Shown piece after piece: positions 924-63,099 of a stretch of 64,000 bases of DNA. A program made the translations under genes and the position numbers. The DNA comes from Botryllus schlosseri (taxonomy: Eukaryota). The notes under the pieces are model-generated. The model saw nothing but the letters and a program-made list of their open reading frames with translations. It did not search any database and was not told the origin of the DNA. Position 1 is the stretch's first letter; the number at the start of each line of letters is the position of its first letter. The stretch lies in NCBI GenBank assembly GCA_051294905.1, contig CM119371.1, positions 35,776,001-35,840,000 of the forward strand, read 5' to 3'.

Positions 924-960
924 ACTTCAACTGTAACTGTCAAATCTGCCGAGATCTTAC

Positions 961-1619
961 CTTTCAATGGTTTGCTGGCCTCCCCAAAGTCAGTGTGATC
1001 GGTGCCGCCAGCCGTGACGGGTGGTTTGTCAGTTCCTTGTCCGCGATTATCTCTCGCCTCGGCTTGTTCGGCAGTCTCCCATGTTTTCGTCGAAACGGCT
1101 TCCGGCGTCGGAGTGGATTTTCCACTACTAGCCAACTCTTGTTGAGCACCCTCGTCAGATTCATGACAAGAATTCGGCTTCGCGAGTTCTCCAAGTTTCG
1201 CCGATGTTGCAACTCCGTCTCCTTTCCTATCTGCCCGGATCCACTCTCGCAAAGATTTCCCACCCTCGGAGTCAACTGTTTTAAGCTGCCTAATCTCACG
1301 CAACGTTCCATCGACTCGGCCTTTGTCCAGAAGGTAGTTGGCGACAGACGATCTGCAAAACATGTCTTGCTAGCATCGATTGGCCATCGACGATCTGGAT
1401 TTACCTCACAATCAGAATTTATCCGAAGAATTATGTGAGCCAGGTCACTCTTAGAGATTCTATGTATCTAGTAATATTCATAATGTGGGCAAAGCTGCAT
1501 AGGAATGACTACAAGTTTCAACTAAAATACAGCATGATGTAGACTTACCCATCTGCATGCCCCGTTTTCGTGCGTGAGACGAACATATCAACCGCTAACA
1601 CAGCTATCGTCAAAAGCAT
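961..1619 (-). CDS. Gene A1, TPR-like helical-repeat family, partial: exon 1 1619-1549 and exon 2 1352-961; downstream exons not in the window
   Basis: Exon 1 runs from ATG, MLLTIAVLAVDMFVSRTKTGHAD, to a GG|GTAAGT donor (phase 2). Exon 2 has a TTTTGCAG| acceptor and an AAAG|GTAAGA donor (phase 1). It is collinear with gene A2, and the exon-2 length differences are 3-nt and 6-nt indels. Confidence 0.7.
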
Positions 1620-2399
1620 CGCCGAGGTGATAAGTGAAATGTGATGTCGCTCTGACTTAGTTGCTAGTCCAATGATTGTATTCGCGTGCCGCTAATTATT
1701 GCAATCGCATACGTGACGGGACGACCCATGCGGTGTCTACATCTCCAATCCAACCCTGTTCCGTATTTGATATAACTATTTATTCGATTATAGACGAATT
1801 TAAATTGAAAGGTCAACTTATTAAACTCAAGTTTCCATACACAAGTACAGACTAGTGATTGAACATTATTGAATGGTAACAGTTACACATACATATGATA
1901 CCATATGAAATCTAGAGTCGTTACCTGAATTCTTCCAATGCTCGGTAACATACTGTCAAGCTATTCGAAGAGATTTATGCAGAGATTGATTCATACTGTA
2001 ATGACTGGACCTAAAGCTTGTGCTACTGCAGTGACTGACACGCAAAATTCCCATCGGAATCTAAAGCGTAACGGTACGACGCATGTGCTCCTTCGCATCC
2101 AATGACCATATGCTCGGCCGCAATACAGGGGAATGTAACTCCTAATCTAGTAGGACCGAATTTTATCGATTGTTATTGACATGGATATTATAACATACGT
2201 CGTTCGTCGCCTATAGATCAAATGCTGGTGCGTGATATTTCGGCTCGATTAGAGACTCGGCTGCATCAATCAGGGCTCTTATAGTAGCTTGCTAACTGGA
2301 TTGAGACTACAACCTTACTTGCAATGCCTCTTATTTATTCGAGCCTATCCTTGAGACATGATCAAAATACGTAAACTATCAATAACCGAATATTATCTT

Positions 2400-3867
2400 A
2401 TTTTAATAGGCAGAAAGTTTACGTCAACTTCGAGGTAACAGCTGCGATAGGTTAACAACGGTTACCTGACTAGGTCAGCGGTTTTAAACATGAGGTGCAT
2501 GAATATTTCGAGATCCGAGGACTATTAGTTTTGAGATTAATAGTAAGACTAACTTTACTTTGACCCGCGCCCTAGCTCAGCCCCAACAATAACCCTCAAT
2601 CGCAAGTGCAACATGCTCAATTTGACAGGGGTCACTAAGACGCGGCCAGCCGTTGTGAGTTGGTGACTACTCAATTCGGCCCTTGAGTAGTAGAACAAAT
2701 TTTGGAAATATTTACTCTCCTGCCTCTGCGCAGTTGTCCTTAACATCGAATTTAAATTGGTCATTTTCATAATGTCGGTGCACGTAGACTTAGATGAACA
2801 TGCCCGTCTTTCCGGCTCCCGTATAGCCAAACTTTAATCCCCGATTCGCCGCAATTTATTCCCTCCATTGGTCGTTGATGGACATGAGATGTTCAGTATT
2901 GTCACAGAGGCATTTCTGTCTAGCCCCCCCCCGTATATTTTTCAGTCATAATTTATTTTTGTAGGTATACATTGATGTACTTCATTAGATTGCTGGCAAT
3001 TTTAATACATTGCTGGGAATTATTCTGTCAATCCATTCCTAAATAAACTGAAACTGTTTCGAAACCCAGAATGTAATGACACTTTGGTATAATTTCATGA
3101 TTCACCTGGTAGCCGATCTGTGTCAAAAACTCCAACACAATCACGATGGTCTTCGTTGAAATCTCTCGCAATTCAAGTAAACTCCCTTGAAAATCTCGTA
3201 TCGCACAGGGCAACAGAATTATAGCACAAAAAAAACAAATCATTTTATCATTCTCGATCAGTAATATAACATGAAAAGCATGACGCCACAGGCCAAGATA
3301 TATCATAAACTTCACTCGTGCGTAGACTGACGAGAGTTTTATGGCTTCAATCCTCTTCCTATTCAAACATAGGTCTTCTTTTAAGACTGAAATTGAAGGT
3401 ATTAGATAGTAAGAATGATACCTTCGCCTACTATAACTAATATGAAGAACATGAAGTCGCTCCCCACTACAAGCTATCGAAATAAGAAGAGTTGGAATCG
3501 TAAGGGAATTGGCAATTTTGCTTGTCTATGTTCCGAAGAGAAGCATCAAGCGCCGTTGCGTGTGGTCCACCAGCGTTTTTTTCGCTTTGGCTTCGTGTCC
3601 AGTATGTCTCGTTGTCGTTATGACGGCAGCCGTCTTCGCAGAAGATTTACCTCTGCATTCAATCTTTTTGGCATGCTTGTCTGTAACATGGTGGGAATCT
3701 TCCCTCACTTTCACTTACACTGTAGTGCTCCGTCTGCTTTCGGATCTACACGAATCATTACTCTCAGACATAGCCTTTCTTCGGATGTTATCGTTTCAGG
3801 GTGTTGGAAGTCTCGCAGAGTTATATTAACTCCTTTTGCACGTGGGAGATCAATAGTGACTGAGTAT
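2400..3867 (-). pseudogene. Decayed paralogue of the same family (exon 2-, exon 3- and exon 4-like remnants)
   Basis: After TTTTTGTCAG| at 3867 it reads RYSVTIDLPRAKGVNITLRDFQHPETITSEERLCLRVMIRVDPKADG, which aligns ungapped to A exon 2 (19/47 identical by eye). After TTTCAG| at 3386 it reads LKEDLCLNRKRIEA, similar to A2 exon 3 SEENLYFMKKRLEA. Near 3211 it reads ALCDTR-FQGSLLELREIST, similar to C exon 4 ALCEEKQFTKALTVLRRIHT. Multiple stops and frameshifts; lower boundary approximate. Confidence 0.6.
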
Positions 3868-5366
3868 CTGACAAAAAAACAGTTCTTACTATCACAGATT
3901 CTGATCATCCATCGGATAGCTTGGTGTAACGAGGTGTAACCGTCCTGAAGTTATATTAAAGGTTAAATCAGCAAATCTATGAACATATTGCAGCACAGAG
4001 ATTAGAATTTCCACCACGTTCTAAGAATATACGAAATCGGCTTCATTCCAAATTTTTGCAAATTGGTTATTCGGGATGACCAACTTATAACGTCTGGTTA
4101 ATGTTTTTGGTCCGTGTATGTAATCATCAAATTAATATTTGTGTGGCCCGCGAAAGTCACACAAAACGGTAAAATATTGATAGAATTTGTACTAAAAATC
4201 AAATAATTGTGGGTACTTGATTAAACTTTTACCTAATATATTACAACATGATGATGATATATTATATTTTTACCATTTAGTCCTTTTTATTTTATTGATG
4301 GCGTGATAGCCCGACTTCACGTCCCATGCATTTGCAGGATTTCAATTACTAAACACCAAAGGTGGTCAGTAACGGAGAACTTCTACTTTTTCGAAGTACT
4401 CAAGTAGTTTTCCTCTACTTCTGGTACTTACTCAGGTAGATCAGATTTCCGCTACACCTACTTTTACTTCGTAATATTTAGTGATCTACTTACTTACTTT
4501 TCGCGATTTTCAGTTTGTCAAGTGGAAGTAGTTTAATCCTCCAATCAGGAAGATAGCCTGAGGAATTTCGGGGCTGTTTTCACGGAGTATCAACATTTAA
4601 TTTTCATAAAAGTTGAGTAAAGCCCAGAATTGTCGTCGTTCTACGCGCTCAGTGGATACGCAGTAACCAGTATGATTTCACAAAAGTATCGGTGAATATA
4701 ATTTATGTTGCGGGTTGGCGTGGTTCCGTTCATACCGCATTGTCACCCTTCGCACATAAGAAATATTTCGTCACAGTATATATGGCTCATAATAACGTTT
4801 GAAACGGATGTTTCGCTATCTAGAATTGACTTATCACATCGTAATCTAGCAGTCCACGGCATGTCCTAATCTGGAAAGTGGACTCTGACTTTTTTAGTTT
4901 TAGAGCTGTTTCAGCATACCACCTTTGAAACTTTCTGGACTAAAGACATGAAATACATTTCCACTTTTAGAAATAGTATTTATACCTCACTTTCAATCCC
5001 CAGTATCATATACTTTGAGTTCTAATTCGTATCAGTTATTTTGTCTGCATGGATAACATACATGTTGAAGTATAAAAGTGTAGTAATGCCTTTAATAATC
5101 GGAAATAAATCTATACAATTAGGAATTTTTACGATCCATCATATTTTTCATTAACGTTTACTAATCGCGCGAAGTGTTTACACCGTATCCTATGCAACTT
5201 CTCCGTGTTGCTTTTCGACTAAACTACGGGCCTTATAGTATGAGGGAGTGCGTCATACCAAGGTATTTTCTAAAACGTGCTGTTCTAGTAAACAGAGGAC
5301 TAGTATCGCATTTCCACATCAATACTATCATTTTCATCCCATGATTGGAAAGAATGCTTATGCTGT

Positions 5367-8300
5367 CATTCAATACGCTCACGAACTCGTCGCTATTTGA
5401 CAGCATCATATTGGACAAGTACCACTTCCCATCTATTCCCCCTTGGGTTTTTCCCCAGCCACACGTTGACATTCTCCCTTCTGCTCGAGTCTTCTTCCCG
5501 TGATGTCTCGGAATCTTTCAAACAGATCTGTTTGAGTCATGTGGTGCTCCAGTGCTGTGCTGTGCATTCGCAACTCTAATTTGCAGCCCCACTACAGACT
5601 GGGTGAGGAAATTCTCTCATCTCGTCTCGTCTAGATTTACGAAAGCGAAGGATCGATGTGACATTTTTGTGGGTTCCAGGGCACGCCGTGATCAGCGGAA
5701 ACGAGGAAGAGGACCGGCTAGCGAAAACAGCTTCTCACTCCCAGTCCAATATCGTCCAGGAATTGTCAAAGCACGTGCTGCGTAAGATCATTCGACGGCA
5801 CTGTATATTTCTATGGAACGAATAATTTCAAGTATCCGACAACGGACATCATTACAAAATTTGTAAGCCATCCATTGGGAACAATCCGTCGGCACGTAGA
5901 AACCGGTAGAACATCGGTTCCCAATCGGTGTGGACATGCACCCCCCTTGTCAATGATCAAAACAATTGCGCCCCCTTATCTCCCCTGCACTGATCGTTAT
6001 GTCGAAAAGAGCACATATAATCTAACACGGAGGTGGGCAACGTTCTTGCTAATCATGATCGCATTTGAATTACCTATGTAGTCAAATGCCGTATTCCAGG
6101 GCATAGCCGTAATTAACTAACTGGACGCGCATGGCGCGAAAAATTTTCAGATTCACGAATGAATTCCGTAATTAATAGTAGTAGTATCAAAAATTACTAT
6201 TAAATATATATATTTTCTCAGCCTATGAGATCAGATTCACCGGTAGAGTTGATGGATGGAGTGCGTTTGAAAATTTAGGACAAATTATAAATGATAATGC
6301 ATCTTCGGTTATGCCAATTGTTATTATAGTCCCATTGTCGAATTCCTTTATTTTTTGACCCCCCCATCGGGATTGTCGATTGTATCGGTGGTAGAAATAG
6401 TGGAAATATATGGAAATCGCCCAAAAGTACCATAAACAAAATTCATTCGTGAGGAGCAGACGATTCCGATTCCGGCTTAGATTGATAAGGGCGCTCCTAT
6501 ACTAAAATCGGAAAATAACGTCGCGTTAAATAGCGCGGAGCTCGAAGAAAATTGTAAGATAAATTAAAATCTCTCAAAAATTCGGGAGTGAATTGGTGAT
6601 TACAATTTGCATGTCGGTGGCCGGCAACACATACTAATTGAATTAGGTGTCGACGGCCGCACAAATTCCCTTCTACGGCCGCAGGTTGCCCACCCCTAAT
6701 CTAATGGTCTACATATGGTATATCCCACGCCAAGTTTGAATCCGCATTCCAGTTGTTAAGTCTTTTACATTTCTGACATAATTCCCCAAACTTGTTTGAA
6801 AATAACAAAAAAACATTGACAACAGGACATCAATTTATTTCAAGGTAGGTTGCACTGGGACTTTAATCCTAATGCTGGTAGTGACTATACAGAAAGCACG
6901 GGGTAGTTCTGTCCAGCCATGCTAAATGTGACCAGTTTTGGAATTTAATTAAATTGTGTTGATTTAGGGTAGCCTAATTGAGTGCAGAACCGGGCAACCT
7001 ATATTGCATTCAAGTCTGTCTTAGGCAGTGCAGTTCGCCAGCTATTAACAACAGCAACCCAACGCACCGAGCGTTAGGCGACTGCCAAAGCTATGAAATA
7101 ACGAATCACTTACACGTAGGAATTGCTCTATATCTTCAGAGAATGTAAAAAATTTGGTCAAATGAAGTTGAAATGAGCATGTAATCCGTAGAGCTTGACA
7201 GCTGAAGTTTGAATTTGGCAGATCTTCTAGAATACGAAATAAGTTTCATCTTCAACAATCGTCTTTTCAGAAAGGTTGTGAAACACATGTTTAGTCACGA
7301 TTTATAAAGACTTTGTCAATTTCTCGCGCCCCCTGAAGGCCTCCCCGTCACCAGGTTGGGAACCACTGGTATAGAAGAAAGTATCCCTTTTAGTTTTCAG
7401 TCCTGTCACTGTCGTCTGAGTATAGCCATTCGATTAGAATAGGTTCAGTGGAATCTCCAATTTGCTCGCTTCGTCAGTATCCGGAAACCACCGAACATTT
7501 TTTGATCCACTGTTCAAAATATGATTGCCATCGTACTTTCCTCATTGCTAAACGTGCTAAATTGAATGTTGATTTTCGCCTTGAAATTCTCCTCGCCGAG
7601 GATCATATCATCCCTTTCACAATTGAATTTGTGTTATCATTAGGGCGATTTTATTTGACATGTCACAAAAAGTCAAAATTAGACCAAAATTGTAGCGTTA
7701 GGTCAAAGAAAGTCAAAATTGTTTACAAAGTCATTTTTTTTGCAACCTGCATTTCGTTTGTGTCGTAGAATTTGCACTGTCGGGAACTTATCATTTGACA
7801 TTTTCCATCGTGCAGCTTACTTTATAGGCCTACCGTTCTTGACGGCTCATTGTCTGCTCATTATGAATCATAAACATTCAAATGGAAAAAACAGGCTCAC
7901 ATGGTGTCATGCTCAACGTACCGCAATATCCCAACTGAAGCAAGACTGCGTGGGCATTGCATGGTTCTTATATCAAGAAGCGCATTAGGAAAAATTGTGA
8001 TGAAGACACCATTGTCAGAGTGAAGCAACACGGCGTGTCACCAGCAGTGTACGCAAATTTTTTCAAGCTACTTAGTAAGGACAGACAATTTCTACCCGAG
8101 AATGTAGGAATGTATACAACAAATTTTAATTATTTCTACCGTAATACGTGATGTAACTACTGGAATTCTTCATAGTGCCAGATTTGGTTAAAATATAGTT
8201 TTCTCACGAAAAAATTTGTCTGTTTTTGAGTTAAAAAAGTTTTTGTCAGGTCAAATTGCTTCCTAAGGACGGACATTTGGAACCGGAAAAGAAGATAAGT

Positions 8301-8546
8301 AGTACAATTGTAACATTATTCGAGAAAACACCTAATTTGCATACGTCAGATCAAAATGTGGTCAATATTAAGTTTTTTAAGGTAAAAAAATGTCAAAATT
8401 TTGATTTTGTAGGTCAAAATCTTCCGTCTGTAGGTAAAAAAATGGCCGTAGTTATCTCGCAACCGTAACTTGTGAATGACCGTGAATTTTTTATTTTCCA
8501 CCGCTCCGAAATTTCCTTTTTCTGGCCTCGATATAAATTTTTTCTC
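5367..8546 (+). mobile_element. Degraded second copy of the RNase H-containing LINE 3' region, split by the insertion at 5912-7368
   Basis: 5367-5911 and 7369-8546 match 23116-25005 (KYHFPSIPPWFFPQPH, PGHAVISGNEE, CSLRQYPETTEHFLIHC). The N-terminal half of RNase H is deleted. Confidence 0.85.
5912..7368. mobile_element. Composite non-autonomous hAT-type element inserted into the LINE
   Basis: Termini CATCGGTTCCCAATC and GGTTGGGAACCACTG. Flanks CGGTAGAA / GTATAGAA correspond to the single GCGTAGAA in the uninterrupted LINE copy (degenerate 8-bp TSD). Confidence 0.6.
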
Positions 8547-12655: not shown

Positions 12656-14735
12656 CTACTGAGGTTCACCACTCCCCAAGCTCTGCAGGCATCGCTGTCG
12701 GCACGACTCGTCTTCAAAATCAGTCGCTCTTTTATACTCGTCGATGGCAAACTTCCTGTATCTCTCCGAAGAGAGATGTAGATTATTCGACCGACACGCG
12801 AGGCTCAGAGTGTAGAATATATCCCCCGCTGTGCTGTTCGGTCTGTAGTTCGGGCTGTTTACGAGATGTATTAACGCCTTCACGGCTTCACTGCCGCACC
12901 TAATGGCTTCTTCGTAGCAGTCAGTTTTGTGATGCAAGAGAGCGATGAAGCCTAAACATCTGGCGAACGCTACAGTTCTTCTGTCGGTATCCACGCATTC
13001 CACCATCTCCAGTTGAAATGTAATCTCTTTCATCCAAGCAATGACAAGTTTAGCAACAATAAGACGCGATTGCCCGCCGGCTTTCACCATCTCCAACGCT
13101 CCACAAAAAATCCTCGCAACTACGATGTAATGCAGCGCTACACGATCCTCCAGTTTTCCAGAGCTGTATGCTTGGTAGACCGATCTGTAGATAATCAAAG
13201 ACGCGAGATGGCGCCCCCGTGTAGACACTTCGTCACCCCACTCCAACAGTTGATGCAGGGGCGTTGACCAACGTTGCACACATTCATCAAAACACCTCAT
13301 TGTCTTGTCCGCCTCGGTAACCTTCCCAAGATAATGCTCGCACTCTGCCATTAGAAGCAACGTACCCAGATTGTCGGTTGCGTGTTCCCGCTGTGGTAGA
13401 TACGATAGAACTTCGTCATAGCGATTATTTCTTATCAGAGCGTGTGCCAGACCTGCAACAAAAATGCAATCTCAGAAGATTGCCAGCGATGATGACATTG
13501 AATTCAAGGGCGTCGATGTAGGCTATATAGCCTACATATAGCGAAATCTCACAGGCAGTGTCAGTATAAACTGATGTAAAATTTTATTTCACGAATTTCC
13601 GCCATATCGTAGGGTGCGAATCAGGTAAATGGTTTTTAATAATAGTACGATATTTCACACCAAACTATTGTAATGGGAGTAAACGAGCTTAATACAACAA
13701 CCGCAATGCCATGACTCATTACAATTCTCCAAGTCAATAAATTCGTCACTAGAAAAAAAGTATTTGATTTGGCCTGATTTCGGCTCTGAACTGCTACCTA
13801 AGTTAATACCGCCACGTCAACGTTAATTTCAAATACTTCGTGACTAAGTCAACTAGTAGGTTATCACCATGGTACACAATCGTCATTGACGTATAATACC
13901 GGGAAGATCTTCAATCTTACATGGAAACAAGACTTGACTTCCGCGGCTGTTAAGATGCTATGAAAAGCCTGAAGATTCGATCAATTGAAGATTCAATCTA
14001 TGCCTAGATACATAGCTTGAGTCATGCAATAGACACCTCACCTCTGCAAATAGATCTGTCGGCTTCCAGCCGTTTCTTCATAAAGTAAAGGTTTTCTTCG
14101 CTGACTGAAACAAAATTTATTCTGTACCACGGCGCCTCGAATTAGGTGGCGAATGAATTCGTACACACTACATGGCATCGAGTGAAGAAAGTTTAACTTC
14201 AACTGTAACCGTCAAATCTGCCGATTTCTTACCTTTTAATAGTTTGCTGAGCTTGTGAAGGTCCGTGCGGTCAGTGCCGCAAGCCGTGGCGGGTGGTTTG
14301 TCAATTCCTGGTTCGCGATTATCTCTCGCCTCGGCTTCTTCGGATGTCTCTCTCGTTTTCGTCGAAACGGCTACCGGCGTCGGAGTGGATTTTCCGGCCA
14401 ACTCTCGTTGAGCACCCACGTCAGATTCATTACAAGAATACGACTTCGCGAGTTCTCTAACTTTTGCCGATGTTGCAACTCCGTCTCCTTTCCTATCTGT
14501 CCGGATCCACACTCGCAAGGATTTCCCACCCTCGGAGTCAACTGTTAGCTGCCTGATCTCACGCATCGTCCCATCGACTCGGCCTTCGTCCAGAAGGTAG
14601 TTCACGACAGACGATCTGCAAAACATGTCTTGCTAGCATCGATTGGCCATCGACGATCTGGATTTACTTCACAATCAGAATTTAACCGAAGGATTATGTG
14701 AACCAGGCCACTCTCAGAGATTCTATGTATCTAGT

Positions 14736-14771
<36 letters not shown>

Positions 14772-15178
14772 GGTTTATTAATCTTTTCATCGTTTCAAAA
14801 CATCACAAGACTGCTATAAAATGAAAGGGTTGGAAGGTGTCGAAACAACTTGGAGTAGCCTTTAACATCAGACACCCACCTTAGCCTAGGCGAAGTAAAT
14901 AAGGGGCATGCACACTGAATGAAAAGTAACGCAGAGAATACAAGACGCAAGCGACAAAATGAGGTGGCATGTGACGGAGGGCGAGGTCGATGTTAGGTCG
15001 TGGTCCTGTAATCCTGAAGACTGGCTAGCGTAATATACATATTGCGGGCAAAGGTGCAGAGCAATGAATACAAGTTTCAAGTAAAATACAGCATAATGAA
15101 GACTTACCTATATGCATGCCCCATTTTCGTCCGCGAATCGACCTTATCAACCGCTAACACAGCTCTCGTCAAAAGCAT
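12656..15178 (-). CDS. Gene A2, uncharacterised TPR-like helical-repeat protein, 437 aa; exons 15178-15108, 14615-14233, 14104-14042, 13452-12656
   Basis: All introns are GT-AG with compatible phases (2,1,1), and 71+383+63+797=1314 nt stays open to TAG. The last exon includes the 234-aa ORF with TPR-like segments (FARCLGFIALLHHKTDCYEEAIRCGSEAVKAL; AGDIFYTLSLACR...YKRATDF). Confidence 0.8.
14737..15035 (-). mobile_element. 5'-truncated 3' end of an L2/CR1-group LINE with (TTGA)n tail, in intron 1 of A2
   Basis: Reverse complement matches 35150-35400. AATAAA is followed by the microsatellite tail seen as (ATCA)n at 14737-14770. Absent from the A1 intron. Confidence 0.75.
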
Positions 15179-16821: not shown

Positions 16822-16829
16822 CTCAATTC

Positions 16830-17375: not shown

Positions 17376-17807
17376 AGAATTCAAACACAACTAAATTAAT
17401 CGATTGTATCATCGTCGATCAATTATAATACCATGAAAATCATGACGTCATATAGGCCTATAGATCAGACCCGGGCAAAGTACGGACCGCGGACCACTTG
17501 CAGCCCACAAAGCTATTCTGTGCGACCCGCGAAAGTTTGCCTGGAATTCAAAAAATAAAACTTGCTTTTTGAATGACTAAAACTAGCTGTTTCAAATGAA
17601 CATGAAATTCGTTTACTTTGAACCTGTTCAAAGTGTTCATTAATATGCCACAATAACGCTGCCTACGTACCTGACATGCGTAGACCAGATTCAAAATAAA
17701 GGCAATGTGGCAAAGTATGAGTAGCAATTGAAGACACAAGTAATCGCTCTTTTCATATAGTTTAGTTCAAACCGTCGTTGTTGCCATTGTCAAATTACGC
17801 ATTACAC

Positions 17808-47857: not shown

Positions 47858-49504
47858 CACCAAAGGGATTTAAACAGATTAAAAAGCAAAACCAAAAAGG
47901 CAAAGTATGATGCAACAATTAAAATCACAAACCATGACATTCACATTGTAACAATGGCAACAACAACAAACTTTGAAGTATACGGACATACGGTACTGTA
48001 GTAGCAGCGCAATTTGTAAATAATATGTTACACACACGAAACAACACTCACTAATCAGAAATTTGTAAGATATGGAGAAAATCTTTTTGTCTGTAAGAAC
48101 TTGCCTGGTTGGATTAAACCTAAAAAGCCACAAATAGTATAGGCAAAAGACCACTACAATCAAATACCATATACGTATTTGAAAGCACTGTTACATCATT
48201 CAAGTCATAAGCCATTATAGTTGTTGGGAAAACAGCATCATCCTCAATTTGTGCAGAACATTCCTGAGCTGACATTGATTGTTAAAATATTTGTGTAGCA
48301 GTTCAAAATTTGCACTGTCATTTCTATCTGAATCTGAACCACTTCCTTTTCTGAGATTATGACTTACATTTAGCATGTACTCGCGGCATTTTAGCAGATA
48401 CTTGACTAGAGTACGGTAATTAGGAGATACTGATGCAACAAATTACAACATAACTTTTAAATGAGTGACAAAACTCATCGTAGCTAATGAAGTGTATGGT
48501 TGTCAACTGACGAGTGCGCCTTACTTAATATGCTGTTTACCGGGTCATATTTATATTGAAATGGTAGCCCATTTGAAGAATGAAATGGTCAAAATTGTCT
48601 TATGCAACACCTGATCTTAGGGCAAATCTTGGTTGCAGTCAAATCCGTGGAAAGTTGCATTTATTTTTCACTAGAGTTACACTAAAAAGGTATATTTATG
48701 GATAAGTTCCTTGAAATTATTAAGGTATGAGATACTCGAATCGATGCGTATCCAAGGCACTGTCGCAAAACTCAGTGTTAGCGCCTTTGACAAAATCAAT
48801 TGCCTGAAAAAATTGACCCAAGTGGTAATATAATTTACGGCGGTCTAGCCTGAATGTATGTCAAATCTGAAATGACCTCAAATTCAAACCACAGTGAAAT
48901 AATCAAGCGATCTATTTATATATAGTAGCCTACCAAATATTTCCAGTAAAAAGTGAGTTGCATGAAAAATCGAAAAGCTCTAAAAATTGCTTGAAAAAAT
49001 GAAGAAAAGTTGCAATTCAAGATTCCTGCAAACAGCTTAAAACACCATACTACATAACCTTTGAGTATTTAGGAAGCTGCCAGACAAGAAATGAACAAAT
49101 TATGACAACCCTGAGAATGGATTTCCATTCAGAAAAGGCTTAATTCACAACAAATATGTTGAGTCATGAGAATGGCTCAGTAAACAACAATATATAGGCT
49201 ATAATAGCCTACATGCTTTCATTGGCTTTGCAAATGACTATTTCCTTTGATATTTTGGATATTCAGGCTCAGTGTGGACTTGCTTCATTAGAAATTAACA
49301 TACCATATGAAAGCTGACATCAAGAGCTAGCAAGTAGAATCTCACACAAACATATACTGGAAAATTTTGATACACTGAATTATACACTGCTGCCACTAGG
49401 AAGTATATATTCAATAATAATTCATTACATGTTATAATATGACCTCATTGACATAAAATAGAAGTAAGCTCTTTTAACAAGCACAGAAATTCAATTATCG
49501 AACA

Positions 49505-50600
49505 CCGTTTATAGTACCATATTCTACATCGGTAGGCCTGCATGTATTTTCACGGTTATCCGCAAAATGATTACGAAAATTCACATAAATGTGGGAGGGG
49601 GGGCCTCATGAATTCAAAGTAAGCTCTTTTAGCGGGTGCAGAAATTTAATGATGGACTGTTTACGGTACCATATTCGACATCGGTAAATATATTTTCACG
49701 GTTATTCGCAAAATGATAACGAAAATTCGCATAAATGTAGGGGGGGGGGGCTCATAAAATCAAAGCAAGCTATTTATCTGATGCAGAAATGTAATGATCG
49801 ACTGCTGTTTACAGTACCAGATGCTACATGGGTACATATATTTTCACGGTTATTCGTAAAATGATAACCAAAAATCGCATAAATGAAGAAGGCCTTCCTC
49901 ATAAAATCAAAGTAATCCATTTTAGCGGGTGCAGAAATTTAATAATTGACTACTGTTTACGGTATTATATTCTACAGGGGTACATATATTTTCAGTTATT
50001 TGCAAAATGATAACATTCGCGTAAATGTAGGAGGGGGCCCTTTAGCTACTGTCAAAATGGATAGAGATCATAAAATCAGAGTGAGCTGTTGCAACTAGTG
50101 CAGAAATTTAATGATCGACTACTGCTTACGGTACTATATTTTACATATGTAGGCAGTAGGCCTACATGTATTTTCACGGCTCTTCGCAAAATGATAACTA
50201 AAATTTGCATAAATGTAGGAGGGGGGCCCCCCCATAAAATCAAAGTAAGCTCTTTTAGCGGGTTGACTACTGTTTACGGTATTATATTCTACATGGGTAC
50301 ATTTTTTTTCGCAGTTATCTGCAAAATGATAACATTCGCGTAAATGTAGGAGGAGGGCTCTTTAACTAATGGCAAAATGGATAGAGATTATAAAATCGAA
50401 GTGAGCTCTTGCACCAAGTGCAGGAATTTAATGATCGACAATTGCTTACGGTACCATATTCTACATTGGTGCATGGATTTTTGTGGTTATTCGTAAAATG
50501 ATAACTAAAAAATGTGGATTGATGTTTGACCCCTCTTTACGGTACAATACGAAGATTCTTTATGGTTATTCGGGAAATGGTAATACTTGGAAAAAAGCGC
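49505..50600. repeat. Degenerate ~150-bp tandem repeats in the right subterminal region of the 6.7-kb element
   Basis: Recurrent TACGGTACCATATTCTACAT...CGGTTATTCGCAAAATGATAAC...CATAAATGTAGG...CATAAAATCAAAG, about 7-8 units. Confidence 0.8.
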
Positions 50601-53440: not shown

Positions 53441-54152
53441 TAGGGTTACCATATTTCAGCAACCCTGATTCCGGACACTCTTTAGCGCCACTAGTGGATT
53501 TCAAAATGAGTTATGACGTCACACTAGCGAAGCTTTGCTCATAGACCAGAGGTGGTCACGATCCGGTTCAGGAGTATGTGGCTGTGTGTCGTGTAACTGG
53601 GACCGATGTAACATGTTTTCAGCCCCTCCCCGCCCAAATAAACAATGATTTTGAGCCCACATTATAGGGTAATCGATGCAACTTCTGGGGGGGGGGGCTT
53701 GCTATATGAATCTGGTTTCTATATGCATCTGGTCGTTCAATTATTTGAATGAATTTTGTCAAAAATATTGGTCGTTCCATATATTACTATATTGATACTA
53801 CTATCCGCCCACATGATCAGAGTTAGCGGTAGAGCTGGTGGAGGGTGATGAGTTCGAAAATACAGGGAGCGTAATTGCACTGTTAAGTCATGTTAATGTC
53901 CTACCGATAAGATTGTTCATCAGCCTTATGCCGGTGCGCACCACGGAGCTTTATAAACACCCCACATCCAGTGGTTTGCTACCTTTTATTATCGCGACTC
54001 CATCTCCAATTTGAAAATGTTCCGCGGCCCAGATCAAAATTTAACAAGCTGATTATTTAAAGAAGTCAACACCTTTGCCCAGACTTACTCACGGGCTATT
54101 TTGGAAGCTAGTTACGTTCAACATGTTCGCAAACCCCAGAATAAAGGCAAAC
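53441..54152 (+). mobile_element. Truncated copy of the TAGGGTTACCATA MITE family
   Basis: Collinear with 59148-59860. Confidence 0.75.
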
Positions 54153-54702
54153 GACGCATGGCAACCCTACACTACACAAACAAACGAGATCTATCGAAAC
54201 CTCGCACAAAACAAACATCAAGCCGATAAACGTTGGCAAGCATTCGACACCCGATAAGAAATAATTTTCAGAACCAAGACGAAAAACAATTGGCGTCCCC
54301 ACCACTGGCCATGGATTAGTGTAGAGATTCGAAACCTTGTTTGACCACGGACCCAAAAATTATTTTGCGTGATTGGGTGAACCAGTCAAGGCGATTCTTT
54401 GCGTGATCGCGCGGACCCTTAAAGAGAATGTCGGAGTAGCTTATGACTACAAAAGAGATCAAAACGTTCACCCAGCCCGCTTCACGGCTAGATTACCAGT
54501 TAGAGTGATACTACTAGCTTCAGGCTATTGTGATCTGTATGGCGAGCACTGACTATAATACAAAACAAGGAAACAAGACGGAAGTAAGGATAGATCTTTT
54601 CAATAGCGGGAATGAGGTTTTATGTTGCAGGTTCAACATTGGTCTTCCATGGACCCACCTTAAAACTCCCTGGATTAATGGGTAAACGTGTCATCCAGCT
54701 CA

Positions 54703-57700
54703 TTAGGCATTCAATTTTAGAGTGTTTTGGACGGAAATGATTGCTTGTTTTCTGCCCTTTTCGTCTAGAAAATCGACAGCTTTCTGGAACTCCACGGCAG
54801 CGTCAACTAGACAGCGCACACCGTTTCGGTAATCGCCGACCAGTAGGTGCGCCTCGCCTTGGAGATGAAGCAAATGACCGGTAGGGACAGTGGCTTGGTC
54901 AGTAAACTGGCGAACACCTGCAATCCCTTCTCGTGTATACCGTATAGTCAAATCATACATCTTCAGGCTGCTGCAGATCTCAGCGATATCACATGTACAT
55001 GATGCGTACATGAGAGCCTTTTGGCGATGACATATCTCCGTCGGAAGACACTCGATCGATTTACCTGCCGCGTAGACTTGGGACATAAAAGCGACAGCGT
55101 AATCACGGATGAACTGACGCTCATACTTTTCCCCCGCGTCCAAGATAAAACTGGCTAACTCGCGAATATCCGATACGACTTGTGTGCACCAAATATAATA
55201 CTCTTCCGAAAAGAGATCGACATTGCCGCAAGTCTCCAGAACCGCTCTGTATAAAAGTGCAGCTGCCACTCTACGCCCGTGAGCTGCCATCTCCTTGCCC
55301 CATTTGTGCACGTAGTCTGGCGGCACCGAGCAGATACGTGCGGTATCGATGAAACCAGCCACCATTCGGTCGTATTGCCGGGAACCCTGCGAGACTATGG
55401 TGCACTCGGCGCGTAGCAGCATCGTGTCCACATCGAAGCAGTTATCGGTATGAATCCGTCGCAACACCGTGAGGGCTTTTGTGAACTGCTTCTCTTCGCA
55501 CAACGCGCTTGCTGTTCCTGTTAAAACAAAGTTACCATATTTTAAGATATGAAAATGAGGACACTTTTCAAGGTACGAAAGGAGATATAGAAATGGGAAA
55601 TTTATGCAGATACTGCTGGTCGACTAAAAAAAGGACGTATGGTAACCCTAATAGCATGATAATAATATCAAGAAAAATCATATTGTTGCTGTTTATCACT
55701 AAGCCTACAGTTATCATTTGCACAAGACAGATGACGATTGCACGATAATTGAGCAAAATTTTAACTAAAACTTCGTGGGGGTCCGTGATGGTCCGAAAGG
55801 GGTCCACGAAGAGAAAAAGATTGATAACCACTGGGCTAGGGTATCGCCTAACGAAATATTCAAATGTATAATACCTCGATGCATCGCCTCTTGTCTTCGA
55901 ATAGCTTTAGACACGAGCTGTGCCAGCTTTTCAGGAACTAAACGAAAACGCAATTTTCCAAATCGGAGATCAAATTATTTATTCCTAGTTGACTCTAAAT
56001 TGTTAACACAAGGAAAATGGAAATAGGATGACATAGTATTTGTGTGGGCCGATTTACATAAAGAATCTCGCTCTTACCGATGGGTCGATTCGGAATATCG
56101 TTATCGCGTTCTACGGGTTTCGTTCCTGCTCTGAAATCGCTTTTAGTTCTGAACTTCACCGATTCCTCGCCATGTTTACTCCCGTTCTGATTTTGACAGT
56201 TAACACCAGAGCGTCCATCACATGCAACCGATTTCGGGTCGCTACTGGACGAACCCGGCCTGAAATTCAGACGAAAATCGCAGTATAGTAGGTCTTTCTT
56301 GTGCGCTGTACGTGAGTATACTTTCGCATACAAAACAACATACGTGTACATTAGGGCTGTTCAAAAACTTTTTTCTTAAAATTTCACTGGCTCGCGTGAT
56401 AAAATGATTATGTTGGCTAAAACAACGCTACATACCAAATTTGGCCCAATTCCAACCAGTAAAAGCGAGATTCTTGCAGTAGAAAGTTTTGAATTTATCA
56501 TATAAAAAACAGAAATAAAATTTGAAATTTTTTCTGTCGACTCCATAATGCGCACTAAAATTGGCTCAATTCCAACCAGAAGAAGCGAAGTTATTGCAGT
56601 AGAAAATTTTGGATTTGAAAAAAATATTATTAGCGGTGACTAACTCTTCAAATATTATTTATTATATGAATTCATGGGATTAGAAATTTTCTTGCTGCAA
56701 TAACTTCGTTTCTAGTGTTTGGAATTGAGCCAAATTTGGTGTGCAACGTTTTTTTAGCCAGCACATTAATTTTATCACGTAGCCAGCAGTGTTGGGATGA
56801 CTCGAGTCATGACTTGACTCGAGTCAGACTCGAGTCACCTTTTTGGTATGACTTGACTTGACTCGAGTCACTTTGCTAAAATGACTTGACTTGACTTGAC
56901 TCGGCGTATCCGAAATGTGGATTGACTCGTGACTCGGAGCAAAATTCACGAGTCAATTTCAAGTCATCAAGTAATCGGTGTCGATCAAAATCATTGTATT
57001 TTGAATATGTTCGGATTGTTAGCGAAACGCTCGTGTAAACCGTGATAGCGACCAATCATTTAACGATCGTGCGTTTTACTGAGCCTCCATTGTTCTGTCA
57101 CAAATAAATTGAACGCAAACGAAGTGATCGAAGCTTACAGCTTACGTTGTCGTAAACTAGTATAGTAAAGTAATTTCTGTTCTCAGTTTTTACCTTAACC
57201 AAACCTCTTGTTTTATTGAAACTGAATTCGAATATAGTTTATACAGTCCTCAACCATTGGCGCATGCTCGAATTGTATCATATCGGTTTGTAAATGCGTA
57301 ATGTATTGCATCTTCTCAATTCGTATCTATTCTTTTATTGGCTGGTAACTATAAACTGAGGTTCAGCAGTTCTACGTATATGTGAGCGATACAGCCCCTT
57401 TTTTCGTGTATATTTAACTCTATATTCGTTCGTCGGTTCTAAATCAATGACCACCCCATCTGTGTTTCAGAGAGCTAGCAAAATGCAATGACGTTATCAT
57501 GCCTCATACTTCGAAAAGACAACTTGACTTGAATTGTGACTTGACTCGTGACTTGACTTGACTTGACTCGACTTGACTCGAGTCAACTCCAAAAATCGAG
57601 TGACTTGACTTGACTCGAGTCACCTTTGAAAATTGATTGACTTGACTTGACTCGAGTCAAAATGTGCAATGACTCGAAATGACTCGTGACTCGAAGGTAG

Positions 57701-57889
57701 TGACTTGATCCCAACACTGGTAGCCAGTGAAATTTAAAAAAAAAAGTTTTTAACAGCCTATAATGTACGTAAATGTCGCACCATCAAGCTCGACCGTTAC
57801 ATGAACAGTATTATATAAGCCACTTACCCGTCTTGATTAACGCATTCTAGAACCTTTGCCGTGACTTTAGAGACGGCTGCTGCATCCAT
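54703..57889 (-). CDS. Gene C, uncharacterised TPR-like helical-repeat protein, 373 aa; exons 57889-57828, 56259-56078, 55937-55875, 55517-54703
   Basis: GT-AG introns with phases 2,1,1, and 62+182+63+815=1122 nt stays open to TAA. The last exon includes the 266-aa ORF with TPR-like TGHLLHLQGEAHLLVGDYRNGVRCLVDAAVEFQKAVDF. Confidence 0.8.
56352..57760. mobile_element. Palindromic TAGGGCTGTTCAAAAA MITE in intron 1 of gene C, interrupted by the element at 56787-57719
   Basis: Same terminus as 25699-26315. The arms TTTCACTGGCT...GTGATAAAAT and ATTTTATCAC...AGCCAGTGAAA are inverted copies. Confidence 0.7.
56787..57719 (+). mobile_element. Complete 933-bp hAT-type MITE with GACTT/GACTC subterminal arrays
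   Basis: TIR CAGTGTTGGGAT ... ATCCCAACACTG; perfect 8-bp TSD GTAGCCAG. Confidence 0.92.
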
Positions 57890-58384
57890 TTCAACATAAA
57901 CGTAACGCTAAATAAGATATCGACAATAACTGTAGAAATGTCATTTCAGAATATGCCAATTAGATCTGGAACAGGCGAGCTTCATCAAATCGACTACATA
58001 TCACACCGCCATAATACCAGCGAATGCGGCACAACAAGTCTCATACTATCTCCCCCATTATAGTACAAATGACCAGTGGCACCCTCCCATTACTTACAGT
58101 GTCTTAAGAGCGTCCTCTCTCGCTTGTAATCAACAACTGATGCGTCTTCCGCCGTAGCCTGTGCCTTAATTATTCAGAAACTCAATCAAGCCCAATCGAC
58201 CGCCCATGACCTGAGTCTGGTACGTCGGACCTGTGAATCGATTGGTTAGGATTCGTATGCGCTCCAGCTTTTTTTCATTTAGGAAGGCGGTCAGGTAATG
58301 AGCGGAGTCGACATACACATACTTTTATCAAAATACACCAGCCAATGCTGTGTCAACAAAAGAGAGTTCGTCTATCTTCCAAAA

Positions 58385-60740
58385 CCGGGGTCACCAACCT
58401 TTTCGCAACCTAGAGCTACTGCTTGGGTACTGATTGAAGCGACGCGCTACCATTTACTCCCGCCGTTCACCCGTACCAGACTGAATTTCCGCTTTGATAT
58501 TTGTAGCACTGATGGTCAAGAATCACATCGCGGTAAGACTTCTAAGAGAGTCTTTAAAATTTATAAATCAAAACATCTCATTTCAACTAGTTAGCCACTA
58601 AGATTTTTAAGAAATCATAAGTTGCTTCGCACCATGTTGGTAAAAATTATACAACAACAGTCAACTCAAAGTTTAAAATAAATCATGTCTGACTTTAGAC
58701 CGGACATTATGTTATCTGGTTCTATATCAGTCAGTTGGAAGCCTAGCATTGCATGCTACCAACTACTGCGCTGTACTCCAGTATGTAACTTGACACTGCA
58801 ACTCTGAGTGAGTGTTCCAGATGCGCGTTAGTGAGGCGTGTTCTGTGTTTGTTTTTGATGAAGTTCATATCCGAAAAGGCTGATTCACAAAGATAAGTCG
58901 AATCGAACACGCTTGCGACCTTCATAGCCGCTGCGCAGTGCGCATGCACCACTGTACTTTTCCGTCTCAACAAGGCACCAAAATTTTGCTGCAGCCTGGT
59001 GGGCATTGAGGTGGAGGTCATTTTGCAGTGTTACAATTTTAATCTCCAACTGTTCAGCACCCAAACATGACAGATTTCAATATACCGGATGGCAGCAACG
59101 ATTACGGAAAGTTGGAAACATGGTACTAAACTGCATTGAGTGTAAGATAGGGTTACCATATTTTTGTTCCACAAATTCCGGACGCTCATCAGCGCCCACT
59201 AGCGGATTTCAAAATGAGCTGTGAGCGCATTGTCGATCAATATGACGTCACACCAGCAACGCTTTGTCAATCGACTAGAGGTGGTCGCGATCCGATTCAC
59301 GAGTATGTGGTTGTATAATGTATGTTTTAACCTGGGCCGTAACCACATATTGCAGCCCCATCCCACCCAAATAAACCCTAATCTTGGGCCCATCGTAGGG
59401 TATTCGATGCAACTTCTGGGGGTTTACTATATGTATCTGGTCGTTAAATGATTTGAATGAATTGTGTCAATAATATTGGCTCTTCCATATAATACTGTAT
59501 AATTTTAATGCTCTCTCCGTCCACATAATCAGAGTCAGCGGTAGAATAGAGCTGATGTAGGATGATGACTTCGAAAATGCAAGGGGCGTAATTGTACATC
59601 GTTAAAAGTCATGTGTCATATCAGCCTAATGCGGGTGTGCACTTCACCACTGAGCTATATAAACACCGCACATCCGGTGTTTTCCAACCTTTTATGGTCG
59701 CGAATCCATTTCCAATTTGAAAATGTGCCGTGACCCAGCTCAGAATTTGATGAGCTGATTAGTAATTAAAGGTCGGCACATTTGCCCAGACTTACTCACA
59801 GCCAATTTTGGAAGCTAATTACGTTCAACATCTTCGCGAACCCCAGAATAAAGGCAAACTACCCCCAGGTTTAGAACCAACATCTTTAAATAAAGCATCC
59901 AAACGACCTAAAACGACGACTCTATGAATACCGCTATCTTGTAATTACGATTACAATTAGACTTCTTTTTGTAAATGAATGTTATTTTTTATTGATTTTT
60001 TTGATGACAGTTTTTGCGAGGGCGCTAGTCCCCAACTTAAAACCAATATATGTGATACTAAATCGCGCGCAGCGCGAGGAAAAATTTCATGTAGCATAAA
60101 TCTGCTCAAAAATAGTCTTGTTTAGGTTGATTTACGGAAAAAAAGATATGAGCTTACTTTAAGCCTTCAAAATTCCGGACATTTAGGCATATTTTAGAAA
60201 TTCCTTCCGGACGCAGTTTAAACAGTGAAATTCCGGACATGTCCGGGAAATTCCGGACGTATGACAACCCTAGTGTAAGAGAAACAAGCTGTCTCAAAAG
60301 ATACAATACGTAATGGGCATACAGATATTGAAAATCTGCTAGTACTTCACGGCTATGTGCTACCGAATAGCATTGTTGTTTACAACTTTGGCATTGTGCT
60401 TGACGTCGAGCTACCATATTAGAACCCCCCCCCCCGTCATTTCAAGAAACCGTGGATAGCATTCCGTCATGTCGCTTGTGATTCTATTACGTGTTGGTAT
60501 AATACTAATTGTAATTGAGGATATTTGATATCATCGCTTTAAGTGTTTATATAAAAATGTATTGTCATTTGTAAGTTACATGTTAGTGTGATTTAAACAC
60601 AACCTAAATAATTCAATTTATATATTTAAAAGCTCACTGGTTTAATCTATCGATTATTGGTAAATGATGCTATTCGATCTAATTTTAGAACAGGCTCGAT
60701 GGCTACCTGGGGCCTGCGGGCACCACGTTGGTGACCCCTG
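58385..60740 (-). mobile_element. Charlie/GTF2IRD2-type hAT deletion derivative with C-terminal dimerisation-domain remnant (58743-58960)
   Basis: TIR C(C/A)GGGGTCACCAAC and TSD TTCCAAAA/TTCTAAAA. Peptide VFDSTYLCESAFSDMNFIKNKHRTRLTNAHLEHSLRVAVSSY. Confidence 0.85.
59148..60272 (+). mobile_element. hAT-type MITE nested inside the Charlie-type element
   Basis: TAGGGTTACCATA ... TATGACAACCCTA; perfect 8-bp TSD GTGTAAGA; TCCGGAC subterminal motifs. Confidence 0.88.
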
Positions 60741-60862
60741 TTCTAAAAATAGTACATTGAACGCTCTCGTATTGGGCATTTCATGCTGATCACACCATAT
60801 TTTGTGATACGATTCTTGATATACGATGTTCTTTTAAAATTCTCTACTAGTTGCTGACGATT

Positions 60863-60896
60863 ACCCCTGACGAGTATCGGCCGAAAATATTCGGGT
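60863..60896 (+). ncRNA. Minimal type I hammerhead ribozyme motif, intact core and stem I
   Basis: ACCC-CTGACGA-GTATCGGCC-GAAA-ATAT-TC-GGGT; predicted cleavage after C60892; lies in a Penelope pseudo-LTR. Confidence 0.65.
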
Positions 60897-61361
60897 TATT
60901 TTCAATATGAATGTACTATTAAATTATGACAATTATAAAACTTGAGTAAATTATTTTATGTCATTTTTCAAAGAATGTGTAAATCATGTTTTAAAGCGTT
61001 TTATAATATCACTAGTTTTAAATGCAGCCCTAACCATACCATCTTCAAACTTCTAAACTTTAAAAACTTTATTCATGGAAGACGAGTAGATTTGTCAATG
61101 AGGTGTTAAAAGTAAAGAGACAAATAGCTGGCCCTTTCAGTACGTATTGTAATTTGGGAAATACATGCAAGTACTCAGAAGAAATACAAGGTCTCGGCTA
61201 CTGACCAGCTCTGGTCGTAAAATCTGGCTACCCAGTCTATGCAATGCGAGCCATCCGGCAAAAGATGAAAATAGGAAACGTAGAACTTCAAGTTTATTTT
61301 TTCCAAATTAAAACAAATTCATTCCAAAGTTTCGAATCAAAAGCCGCAAGTTGTATATCGG

Positions 61362-63099
61362 TCAGAGTACTTTTTCGAGCGCCCTCATCTCCAAACTCTC
61401 GTTCAAGCATCCGTACGCCATTTCCATGGTCGCCTTCCTGATCCAGTCGGTCCTGAAATCTTGAGCTTCTTCGAAAAAGCTGATCGACTTCTCCAGATAA
61501 TGCACCGCCTTGCTGTACCTGCGCTTCAGGTGATGGCCGAGACCTAGACGACGGTACATGTACCCGGTCAGTTGGCACCTGGTGATTGGCGGATTAGGGA
61601 GTTTACGCAGCCAGTCGATAAGCGACCGTGCTTGTATGATTGCCATGTCGTGGTTCTCCAAGTTACTGTAGAGCACGCATAGGTCTTCAGTGCTCGAGCC
61701 TATTGCGACAACTTTTCCTTCAATGTCCTCCCACGGGACGGACTTCAAGTCCTCCGTAAAATCTGCGACGAACTCGATAGCGTGTCGTTCGATAATATAC
61801 TGCGAGCAGTTGCCAGACTTCATCATGCGATCAGCGAGTTTGAAGATGTTTTGAGAGTTTGCGAATATCCACACTGCCAACTCTTTGGGCGATCGCTCTT
61901 TAGCCCTCTCGGATTTACCGCACACGCGGTACAAAATCATAGCAGCTACATCTCGGTCGTTGAACGCGAGCTGATCCGCCCACGATTTGACTTCCTCCAG
62001 AGGTATAGACGGGCAGTTGTCGATAGCGAGCTGTAAATTGTCGATGCTGCGTTTCGCAATCTCGCGCCTCAGGTGCACGTCGCAATCTGCCATCATTAGC
62101 AGCGTGTCCAGGTCCTTGGTCAATTCGATTTCTTCGATTTGCTCCAACCGCGCCCTGGCAACTTCGTACATTCTGCCTTGCATGTGCGAACAGGCGAGAC
62201 CTAAAGAGAGAAAACATTTTATAATTTACTTCCAATGAAAGGAATTGCATAGTTCGGTAACTCAATGCATGCACTGTTCATTTCTCGAGTACAATATAAT
62301 AAACAAGTTGGGACTCAGCAAAACGATTCCAGTTCTGGAATCCGAGGCGAGCAATGTAAACAAAAGCCTTTCCCAACTGCGGTGGTAACACACCGTTGAA
62401 ACCACTTTGCAAAAGCCTGATATTCACGGAAATTATAGTTAGAGCAGTAACAGACCCGCTACATTGTCAAACGCGATGAACTAGTCAGAATGGTCAAAAA
62501 ATACAAAATTATTTTTCAAATCGTGTTAGGAGAGTCGGAAAATAGGTACTATATGTACTAATAAATATGTACCTCAATACTTTTTTTAACAATTTTTAAT
62601 ACGTCACCCCATCATTATCACGTTACAGTGAAACAAACAACGTGGTATGCATCACATCTGTTCGATTTTCCACACATTTCAAATAGCCGTGGTTGAAGGA
62701 GTGAAAGCAGATACTCAGGTGATGGTAGTCCCTATACTTCCTAAATTGCGACTCGATTACCAATGAACTTATGGATTTCCAAGTGAAGTAACATGTAGGC
62801 CCATGTATTATAATTGACTAAAAACTGTTTGAGTACCCCGAAAAAGTAAAAACAATTCTTCTAACTACTGTCAATTTTCAATATTGCATAACCCTAGGAT
62901 AATTTACGTCAAGCCACGGTCTGCGTTAGAACGGTGATGCCGATGTCCCGGTTTAGGTACCGATTTTTATTTAGTATATTCATGTCAATGACACGAGTCA
63001 TCCCCCTCCCTCCCCAGGTATATAGCTTGTACTCACCTCTCAGGAACGACACAAACGCAAGCTTATCTCTGCCCAGCTCTCGGTAATGATCAAGCGTAT
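61362..63099 (-). CDS. Gene D, TPR-like helical-repeat protein, 5'-partial; exons 63099-63037 and 62200-61362
   Basis: A 63-nt exon (TTTCAG|...GAG|GTGAGT) splices in phase 1 to TCTCTTTAG| and the 273-aa ORF. TPR-like segment TGYMYRRLGLGHHLKRRYSKAVHYLEKSISFFEEAQDF. Confidence 0.8.

Follow-up and report, generated by a model that had tools for sequence, protein, structure and literature searches.

What are the divergent genes that stand in tandem on the minus strand of this stretch of Botryllus schlosseri DNA, and what may their proteins do? The window, i.e., the whole stretch analyzed (64,000 nucleotides), had been described in an earlier note as a cluster of at least five same-strand paralogues and two relics of a TPR-like gene family undergoing birth and death. 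In this work, we found that these genes belong to an animal protein family that has not been described, although its kind is familiar. A predicted TPR-like structure and a history of local birth and death are very likely. The explanation as a whole, namely that these are paralogues without named relatives, gained and lost locally, with an intracellular TPR-like adaptor role in defence or stress sensing, is plausible and held tentatively, at slightly below an even chance.

Gene content and exon organization

Four homologous last exons of approximately 0.8 kb each were found on the minus strand (A2, B, C, and D; pairwise tblastn E of 1e-6 to 1e-55), and all four are preceded by a 63-nt phase-1/1 exon 3. 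When the whole 64 kb was scanned for an AG followed by a 63-nt open phase-1 exon and GT[AG], with a pyrimidine tract, six sites were recovered, four of which are the family exons, one ahead of each last exon. The exon phases 2/1/1 and canonical AG/GT sites are common to A2, B, and C; the first two of these phases are seen in A1 and the last two in D, such that the shared organization described earlier holds. Exons 1 and 2 of the models are predictions only. The features are as follows.

1619-961, minus strand: A1, open frame with phases 2/1 (exon 1, 1619-1549; exon 2, 1352-961)
924-8534: first copy of a segmental duplication, which carries A1 and matches 14196-24992 in six collinear blocks with 82-90% identity
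3867-3343, minus strand: A-type relic, with a frameshifted exon-2-like piece (3867 to approximately 3570) and an exon-3-like trace (3403-3343)
15178-12656, minus strand: A2, intact four-exon model of 437 aa (exons 15178-15108, 14615-14233, 14104-14042, and 13452-12656; last exon 797 nt)
38127-32747, minus strand: B, four-exon pseudogene (exons 38127-38114, 37002-36842, 35749-35687, and 33562-32747)
57889-54703, minus strand: C, intact four-exon model of 373 aa, weakly transcribed (exons 57889-57828, 56259-56078, 55937-55875, and 55517-54703; last exon 815 nt)
63099-61362, minus strand: D, transcribed, with exon 3 (63099-63037) and an intact last exon (62200-61362; 839 nt); exons 1 and 2 were not found in the window, the edge of which cuts the model

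The claim of at least five paralogues is thus borne out in part: there are four last exons plus the two exons of A1, but only A2, C, and D have intact TPR exons, and B is broken, with a stop at position 33434 and, near 32922, a frameshift of one base. Profile and tblastn scans of the window found neither a fifth last exon nor a second relic, so the count of two relics falls to one (tblastn E of 1e-4 to 6e-4; in blastn, 66% identity across 61 nt with E of 0.005). For A1, exon 2 shares 87% DNA identity with that of A2, and the identity overall is 82-89%. The match between their introns ends at 924, where a repeat is inserted, and no match to exons 3 and 4 was found in positions 1-923. Many transposon relics lie between the family genes.

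The paralogues differ widely in age, as had been proposed. Next to the recent pair A1/A2, B and C share 41% amino-acid identity, and A2, C, and D share only 20-22%. The sparse common motifs also stood up, with W[GA]..YR and [FYL]..A.[DN]F present in 4/4 genes (A2, B, C, and D) and a TLL.A[ED]C-like motif discernible in the family alignments. Intact and broken copies, a recent segmental duplicate, and a relic together agree with birth and death, in which family genes would be gained and lost through local duplication.

Predicted fold

TPR is a 34-residue repeat with a small/large consensus. The TPR-pattern score peaks at 66, 171, and 213 (0.76-0.81, against a mean of 0.30 and sd of 0.12), which predicts approximately three TPR units, all degenerate, with a spacing of 42 residues between the second and the third. 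Consistent with the TPR-like fold suggested earlier, the AlphaFold model is an all-helical solenoid of 13 helices (pLDDT 85, pTM 0.82), predicted to be a stack of antiparallel helix pairs as in the TPR superfamily. The repeats are irregular in length and show no internal conservation.

Database comparisons point in the same general direction. The Foldseek and VIA lists consist mostly of TPR proteins, and the matches are generic: the top Foldseek matches are consensus TPR and Pins/LGN (E of approximately 1e-4, TM up to 0.55), and a Z of 13.6, the highest in VIA, is no more than helical models can reach through a common arrangement. The family profile matches consensus TPRs, LGN, and, weakly, kinesin light chain through the C-terminal part (approximately 90 positions in PDB), and six of 11 family members match TPR_12 at E up to 0.1. 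None of the window proteins reaches the Pfam TPR cut-offs (23.5-30.1 bits), the best scores against TPR models being 11-17.5 bits. Searches of the viral fold library (TM of 0.45 at best), NCBIfam, and the protein atlas likewise gave generic matches, which in the atlas are TPR clusters with a recognition score below threshold. Compared with solenoids of the kinesin-light-chain, LGN-Pins, or TPR_10-TPR_12 type, this family shares the predicted helical hairpins and the small/large pattern in approximately three units, but differs in its scores below the Pfam cut-offs, irregular repeats, own motifs, lack of orthology, and local, expanding cluster.

No catalytic domain was found in the window proteins by domain searches. 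Signal and membrane helices are absent from the A2 and C models, and no 19-residue stretch in A2, C, or D exceeds a hydrophobicity of 1.74; based on those two models, a cytosolic location is probable. The model of A2 exon 2 is a four-stranded meander of low confidence (mean pLDDT 47). Its match to Pur-alpha (Z 7.3, rmsd 1.9, 52 residues) is no better than a common arrangement can give, and therefore no function was drawn from it.

Transcription of C and D

RNA and contig mapping covered C and D, with reads less than 88% alike left out. In RNA run X23, the D last exon has a summed depth of approximately 18-23, and the depth is 0 in both bins that lie wholly inside the D intron (62351-63018), whereas contig run X18 is even across this exon and intron (70-101). 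An X1 contig departs from the genome at 62198, next to the D acceptor at 62200, with 109 letters of the contig unplaced, and another departure at 55519 is the exact point predicted by C splicing. No splice-junction read for C or D was found among the 15 joints listed (1,257 more are unlisted, and the joints are swamped by repeats). The predicted splicing is accordingly backed by exon-confined RNA and by contigs that exit at the acceptors, but not by a junction read among those listed. Both genes are expressed at a low level, with almost no signal in the single-cell run X21. The X18 depth is also even on the C and D last exons (70-80, compared with 85-101 in unique intron bins), which speaks against additional near-identical copies.

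Relatives outside the window

We found eight unnamed relatives and no housekeeping orthologue among them. Searching 1.84 billion representatives with C by phmmer returned seven matches, all unnamed, and the insensitive word-based protein searches returned two matches each. In the tree, C pairs with P0001 (70%), B with P0002 (72%), and A2 with P0007/P0008 (50-53%), with clade support of 99-100. The A, B, and C subfamilies are therefore old, since each has an outside counterpart. P0002 is intact, though its window counterpart B is broken. No relative turned up in metagenomes scanned with the B/C and A alignments, and an exact look-up of eight window ORF variants found none (0/8).

Literature searches found no published description of such a family, which supplements could list as unannotated; TPR or tetratricopeptide has zero mentions in the main texts of PMC7540406 and PMC13746493 and in one supplement of PMC7540406. 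None of the collections searched contains a named member, and ORF-based annotation would miss these genes, the models of which thus add an undescribed animal family. The surprise is limited because lineage-specific TPR expansion with birth and death is a familiar pattern.

Selection and polymorphism

The dN/dS estimates are 0.66 for A1/A2 exon 2 (95% interval 0.37-1.32) and 0.55 and 0.24 for B/C; those for A2/C/D were left out, dS being saturated. As no point estimate exceeds 1 (range 0.24-0.66), there is no signal of positive selection, and an arms race is not supported. The values below 1 for B/C indicate that selection has maintained the fold. Changes are more frequent on the concave face than elsewhere (64/119 versus 45/120, p = 0.014), an excess that is not robust with independent pairs or fewer units (p = 0.11-0.49). 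All five tallies of concave versus outer change lean in the same direction (one-sided p = 0.035 by column permutation).

Polymorphism, for which the earlier note had also asked, is not clearly above that of the flanks for C and D. The exon pieces of C differ at 13/701 letters (1.9%), against 1.9-4% in nearby genomic contigs, and 51 of approximately 1,220 letters in a single RNA contig of D do not match the window (4.2%, including the 3' UTR). Synonymous and non-synonymous changes are not separable in these contig differences. Taken together, these results lend no direct support to the roles in immunity, self/non-self recognition, or genetic conflict that the earlier note had inferred.

Possible roles

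In the explanation that we prefer, each intact gene would encode a variable N-terminal tail followed by the predicted TPR-like solenoid. This solenoid likely serves inside the cell as an adaptor or a sequestering factor without catalytic activity, with a protein or peptide as its binding partner. Binding would probably take place in the concave groove, and paralogues that are approximately 20% identical may have different partners. That the role is intracellular defence or stress sensing, similar to that of IFITs, is a possibility to which we commit ourselves only weakly, arguing by analogy.

IFITs are induced by viruses and interferon and bind RNA. They are TPR-only genes in same-strand tandem, coding mostly in the last exon, with lineage-specific expansion and pseudogenes, and all of these traits recur in the window family (PMC3688568). 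Most IFIT genes have two exons (46/60), the first of which encodes only the start of the protein, and they are reported from jawed vertebrates, with none found in the sea squirt Ciona (PMC3688568). The window genes A2, B, and C differ in having four coding exons and a variable N-terminal tail. The family profile matches 51 PDB sequences at E up to 1, none of which is an IFIT chain, and the IFIT clamp fold is absent among the Foldseek and VIA matches listed. Should the genes respond to infection, the family would gain in importance as a convergent solution, given that no IFIT genes were found in Ciona (PMC3688568). A bolder version is unlikely, in which an invertebrate chordate lacking IFITs would have evolved its own, comparable set of TPR sensors acting inside the cell, all built on one orphan solenoid with paralogue-specific grooves and exchangeable N-termini and subject to pathogen-driven turnover; such N-termini would be a disordered tail, a small beta-meander, or a membrane anchor. 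Innate-immune families of oyster similarly combine tandem local duplication with paralogue divergence, but they are known to be immune and have challenge-expression data, neither of which applies to the window family (PMC4346834).

The alternative that survives best, doubtful yet to be taken seriously, is a lineage-specific scaffold with a non-immune, tissue-restricted job (e.g., gonad, cilia, or trafficking), which drifts under relaxed selection while an unstable, repeat-rich region generates duplicates and pseudogenes. Such a scaffold would fit dN/dS below 1 throughout, the divergence of A1/A2 exon 2 at roughly the flanking rate (43/383 nt mismatched versus 100/1024 nt in the upstream flank), the abundance of transposon relics between genes, the low expression, and the age of the subfamilies. 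However, the low identity among paralogues and the losses suggest more turnover than in a core scaffold, and the one-sided lean of the concave-face tallies also speaks against it.

NB-ARC/NACHT-TPR receptors have a central STAND NTPase domain. It is improbable that the window proteins are sensor domains detached from such NLR-like receptors, whether they would serve as decoys or pair with an NLR as its separate sensor, because this domain is absent from the complete A2 and C models (exons 2 and 4 have no such Pfam match), the repeats are degenerate, and a word-based search of 7,999 candidates of 490-2,000 aa, which is weak evidence, found no longer fused homologue. The family also has no effector domain and no near-identical internal repeats. 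What connects the two is a TPR module as the candidate diversifying, ligand-binding part: fungal NLR TPR domains have been modelled on kinesin light chain, which our family matches weakly in its C-terminal part, and vary on the concave face (PMC4986451).

An origin of the window genes by divergence from one of the conserved housekeeping TPR genes (LGN/Pins, kinesin light chain, TTC29, or NASP) is very improbable. Such proteins lead the fold, profile, and language-model lists, but only with short or weak natural-protein matches (E of 1e-4 or worse, 8-16% identity), confined in PDB to the C-terminal 90 or so positions and thus short of full-length orthology, and the phmmer matches of C are all unnamed. 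Clear housekeeping orthology, which would have refuted the earlier note, was accordingly not found in these searches.

Allorecognition loci are characterized by extreme allelic polymorphism and a secreted or membrane-bound ligand or receptor. A self/non-self locus (allorecognition or self-sterility) would be equally far-fetched here: the genes are clustered, divergent, and lineage-restricted, and the D contig differs from the window, but the window proteins lack a signal or membrane helix, the C exons differ no more than nearby contigs, and a term search of a Botryllus histocompatibility review found TPR mentioned zero times (PMC12065747). Two outside relatives, P0005 and P0006, do have a predicted membrane helix (hydrophobicity 2.19 and 2.78), which would place the solenoid outside the cytosol and favours such a locus. 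That one solenoid occurs both in soluble form and with a predicted membrane anchor is a small, testable oddity.

Gene structure and copy number

The window has a G+C content of 41%, contains many introns, and is dense in repeats. Based on six-frame translation and tblastn homology, we found the last exons of four minus-strand paralogues (A2, B, C, and D) of a TPR-like gene family, together with a single A-type relic:

13452-12656, minus strand: last exon of A2
33562-32747, minus strand: last exon of B
55517-54703, minus strand: last exon of C
62200-61362, minus strand: last exon of D
3867-3343: A-type relic, one copy

Profile-profile comparison joined B/C to the A subfamily (probability 98.7, E 4e-16, 249 columns). 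A 63-nt exon of phase 1/1 lies directly before every one of the four last exons. The sequences of this exon 3 are clearly alike for B and C alone (BLOSUM 23; remaining pairs at most 10). Despite this weak similarity, the common exon layout is unlikely to be due to chance, because the signature of the 63-nt exon occurs at six sites on the entire minus strand and four of these are exon 3 of A2, B, C, and D.

Complete models with phases 2/1/1 and open frames were obtained for A2 (437 aa) and C (373 aa). B has the same four exons, yet is interrupted by a stop codon at 33434 and by a single-base frameshift near 32922. Exons 3-4 of D are open (299 aa), and no first exons of D were located within the window. 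The tandem four-exon family described in an earlier note was thus right in kind, but only three TPR exons in the window are intact. Its recent duplicate A1 does lie within a segmental duplication of the A2 region that aligns in six collinear blocks at 82-90% identity, but A1 consists of exons 1-2 alone, and the match stops at 924, at an inserted repeat. As for the two relics claimed, profile and tblastn scans of the window found neither a second relic nor a fifth last exon. A donor-like site upstream of the modelled exon 1 is kept in A1 (1922) and A2 (15481), and may belong to an alternative first exon or a 5' untranslated one.

Transcription of C and D

Reads and contigs were compared with 54001-64000, the region of C and D. 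In the bulk RNA run X23, summed depth was ~18-23 over the last exon of D and ~1-2 over that of C, and fell to 0 in two bins (62351-63018) entirely within the intron above the D last exon. In X1, a contig run that we guessed to be RNA, a 1361-nt contig matches 60978-62198 with 109 letters unplaced at the D acceptor, and a 270-nt contig stops at 55519, the point expected from the C exon 3-4 splice. This coverage and these contig ends are the pattern of spliced transcripts; the RNA library carries no strand information. At the predicted junctions, exon-confined RNA and contigs ending at acceptors were found, but none of the 15 joints listed, which are repeat-derived, is a junction-spanning read; another 1257 joints lay beyond the list. 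X18, a run whose kind is not on record, has one 2405-nt contig that spans the D intron with even, DNA-like depth, and the single-cell run X21 has next to nothing over the region.

Predicted protein

With an 11-sequence alignment as input, AlphaFold predicted the C last exon as 13 helices (pLDDT 85, pTM 0.82). Consensus TPR proteins and Pins/LGN head the Foldseek matches (E about 1e-4, TM up to 0.55), in line with the TPR-like fold proposed in the earlier note. The top VIA match is NASP (Z 13.6, rmsd 4.9, 183 aligned), which is generic because designed repeat proteins tie with it. Compared with consensus TPRs, LGN, and kinesin light chain, the family profile matches only in its C-terminal part. 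Pfam TPR matches in the window proteins are all below cut-offs, and a TPR residue pattern is strongest at positions 66, 171, and 213. No membrane helix was found in the A2, C, or D models.

The N-terminal tails of B and C are short and polar; that of A is predicted to form a four-stranded meander (block pLDDT 63-71, single sequence) and then a disordered stretch. This putative beta-meander, encoded at the start of A-type exon 2 (14615-14450; 1352-1180), is not in B or C. Its top fold match, Pur-alpha, was rejected as not significant (Z 7.3).

Relatives outside the window

A phmmer search with C against 1.84 billion representatives gave seven matches with E no higher than 0.001, and an eighth came from a word search; all eight are unnamed singletons from Logan or ENA assemblies. 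In a tree of 12 rows, the relative P0001 groups with C (70% identity), the intact P0002 with B (72%), and both P0007 and P0008 with A2 (50-53%). The branch of D is long and its position uncertain. C and P0001 are as far apart as B and P0002, which suggests that P0001 and P0002 are orthologues from a single related species; if so, B would have died recently in this lineage. The relatives P0005 and P0006 start with a hydrophobic helix (2.19 and 2.78) that has basic residues ahead of it, and would therefore be type II membrane proteins. This single membrane helix, predicted ahead of the solenoid, suggests that the family has soluble and anchored forms.

Selection and polymorphism

Nei-Gojobori dN/dS was 0.66 for A1/A2 exon 2 (95% 0.37-1.32; 127 codons), and 0.55 (0.37-0.77) and 0.24 (0.09-0.50) for the B/C last exon taken in two parts; more distant pairs were saturated. 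A1/A2 exon 2 diverged at about the non-coding flank rate, yet its two gaps (9 nt in total) keep the frame. At positions that we take to form the concave face, 64/119 comparisons differ versus 45/120 on the outer face (p 0.014). Among four independent pairs, the counts were 46/95 and 35/96 (p 0.11), and with three units p was 0.40, such that greater change on the concave face amounts to no more than a trend.

In single contigs, 1.9% of the C exon and 4.2% of the D exon plus 3' UTR differ from the window, as against 1.9-4% in genomic contigs. By comparison, Botryllus fuhc-sec alleles are reported to differ at ~25 of 550 residues (PMC12065747), so the contig differences are compatible both with hyperpolymorphism and with its absence.

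Possible roles

The family was gained by duplication, diverged, and was partly lost, and C and D are transcribed. Its product is modelled as a stand-alone TPR-like solenoid. By established TPR biology, the groove would bind peptide or protein in the same manner as other TPR scaffolds, and the product would function either as an adaptor or by sequestering its partners, which would vary between paralogues. We are highly confident in the structural and evolutionary part of this explanation.

Defence or stress sensing in the manner of IFIT proteins is a plausible but tentative reading by analogy: the family resembles IFIT loci in layout, but has neither the gene structure of IFITs (PMC3688568) nor a sequence match to them. 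A non-immune scaffold drifting fast is about equally probable. The other readings are less likely than these two. A detached NLR sensor is improbable, and the family is without the NTPase of NLR-TPR receptors (PMC4986451). Allorecognition and a housekeeping paralogue are both very improbable. No published description was found among the papers listed by literature searches or by term searches of two tunicate genome papers (PMC7540406, PMC13746493). The family is real, apparently undescribed, and of a familiar kind.

Neighboring repeats

Several repeats lie among the genes. The segment 21144-24160 holds a broken P-element-type transposase (PF21787, E 2e-7) and then a LINE fragment encoding RNase H (PF00075, E 8e-10). 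Some of the LINE recurs in the first duplicate copy (5369-5911). A MITE-like inverted repeat lies at 25692-26322, its 311-bp copies almost perfectly matched (95%) and separated by 9 nt. In 29230-31305, a TTAGGG-rich core (30224-30660) is flanked by two inverted arms built of 15-16-bp tandem repeats; the whole looks like a foldback or a non-autonomous element, or else like an interstitial insert of telomere-like sequence. The element at 44158-46745 is probably a DNA transposon; its inverted ends are ~210 bp (88% identity), and its two long plus-strand ORFs (44568-45329 and 45323-46042) gave no convincing Pfam match. A degenerate tandem array of a 148-bp repeat occupies 49484-50511.
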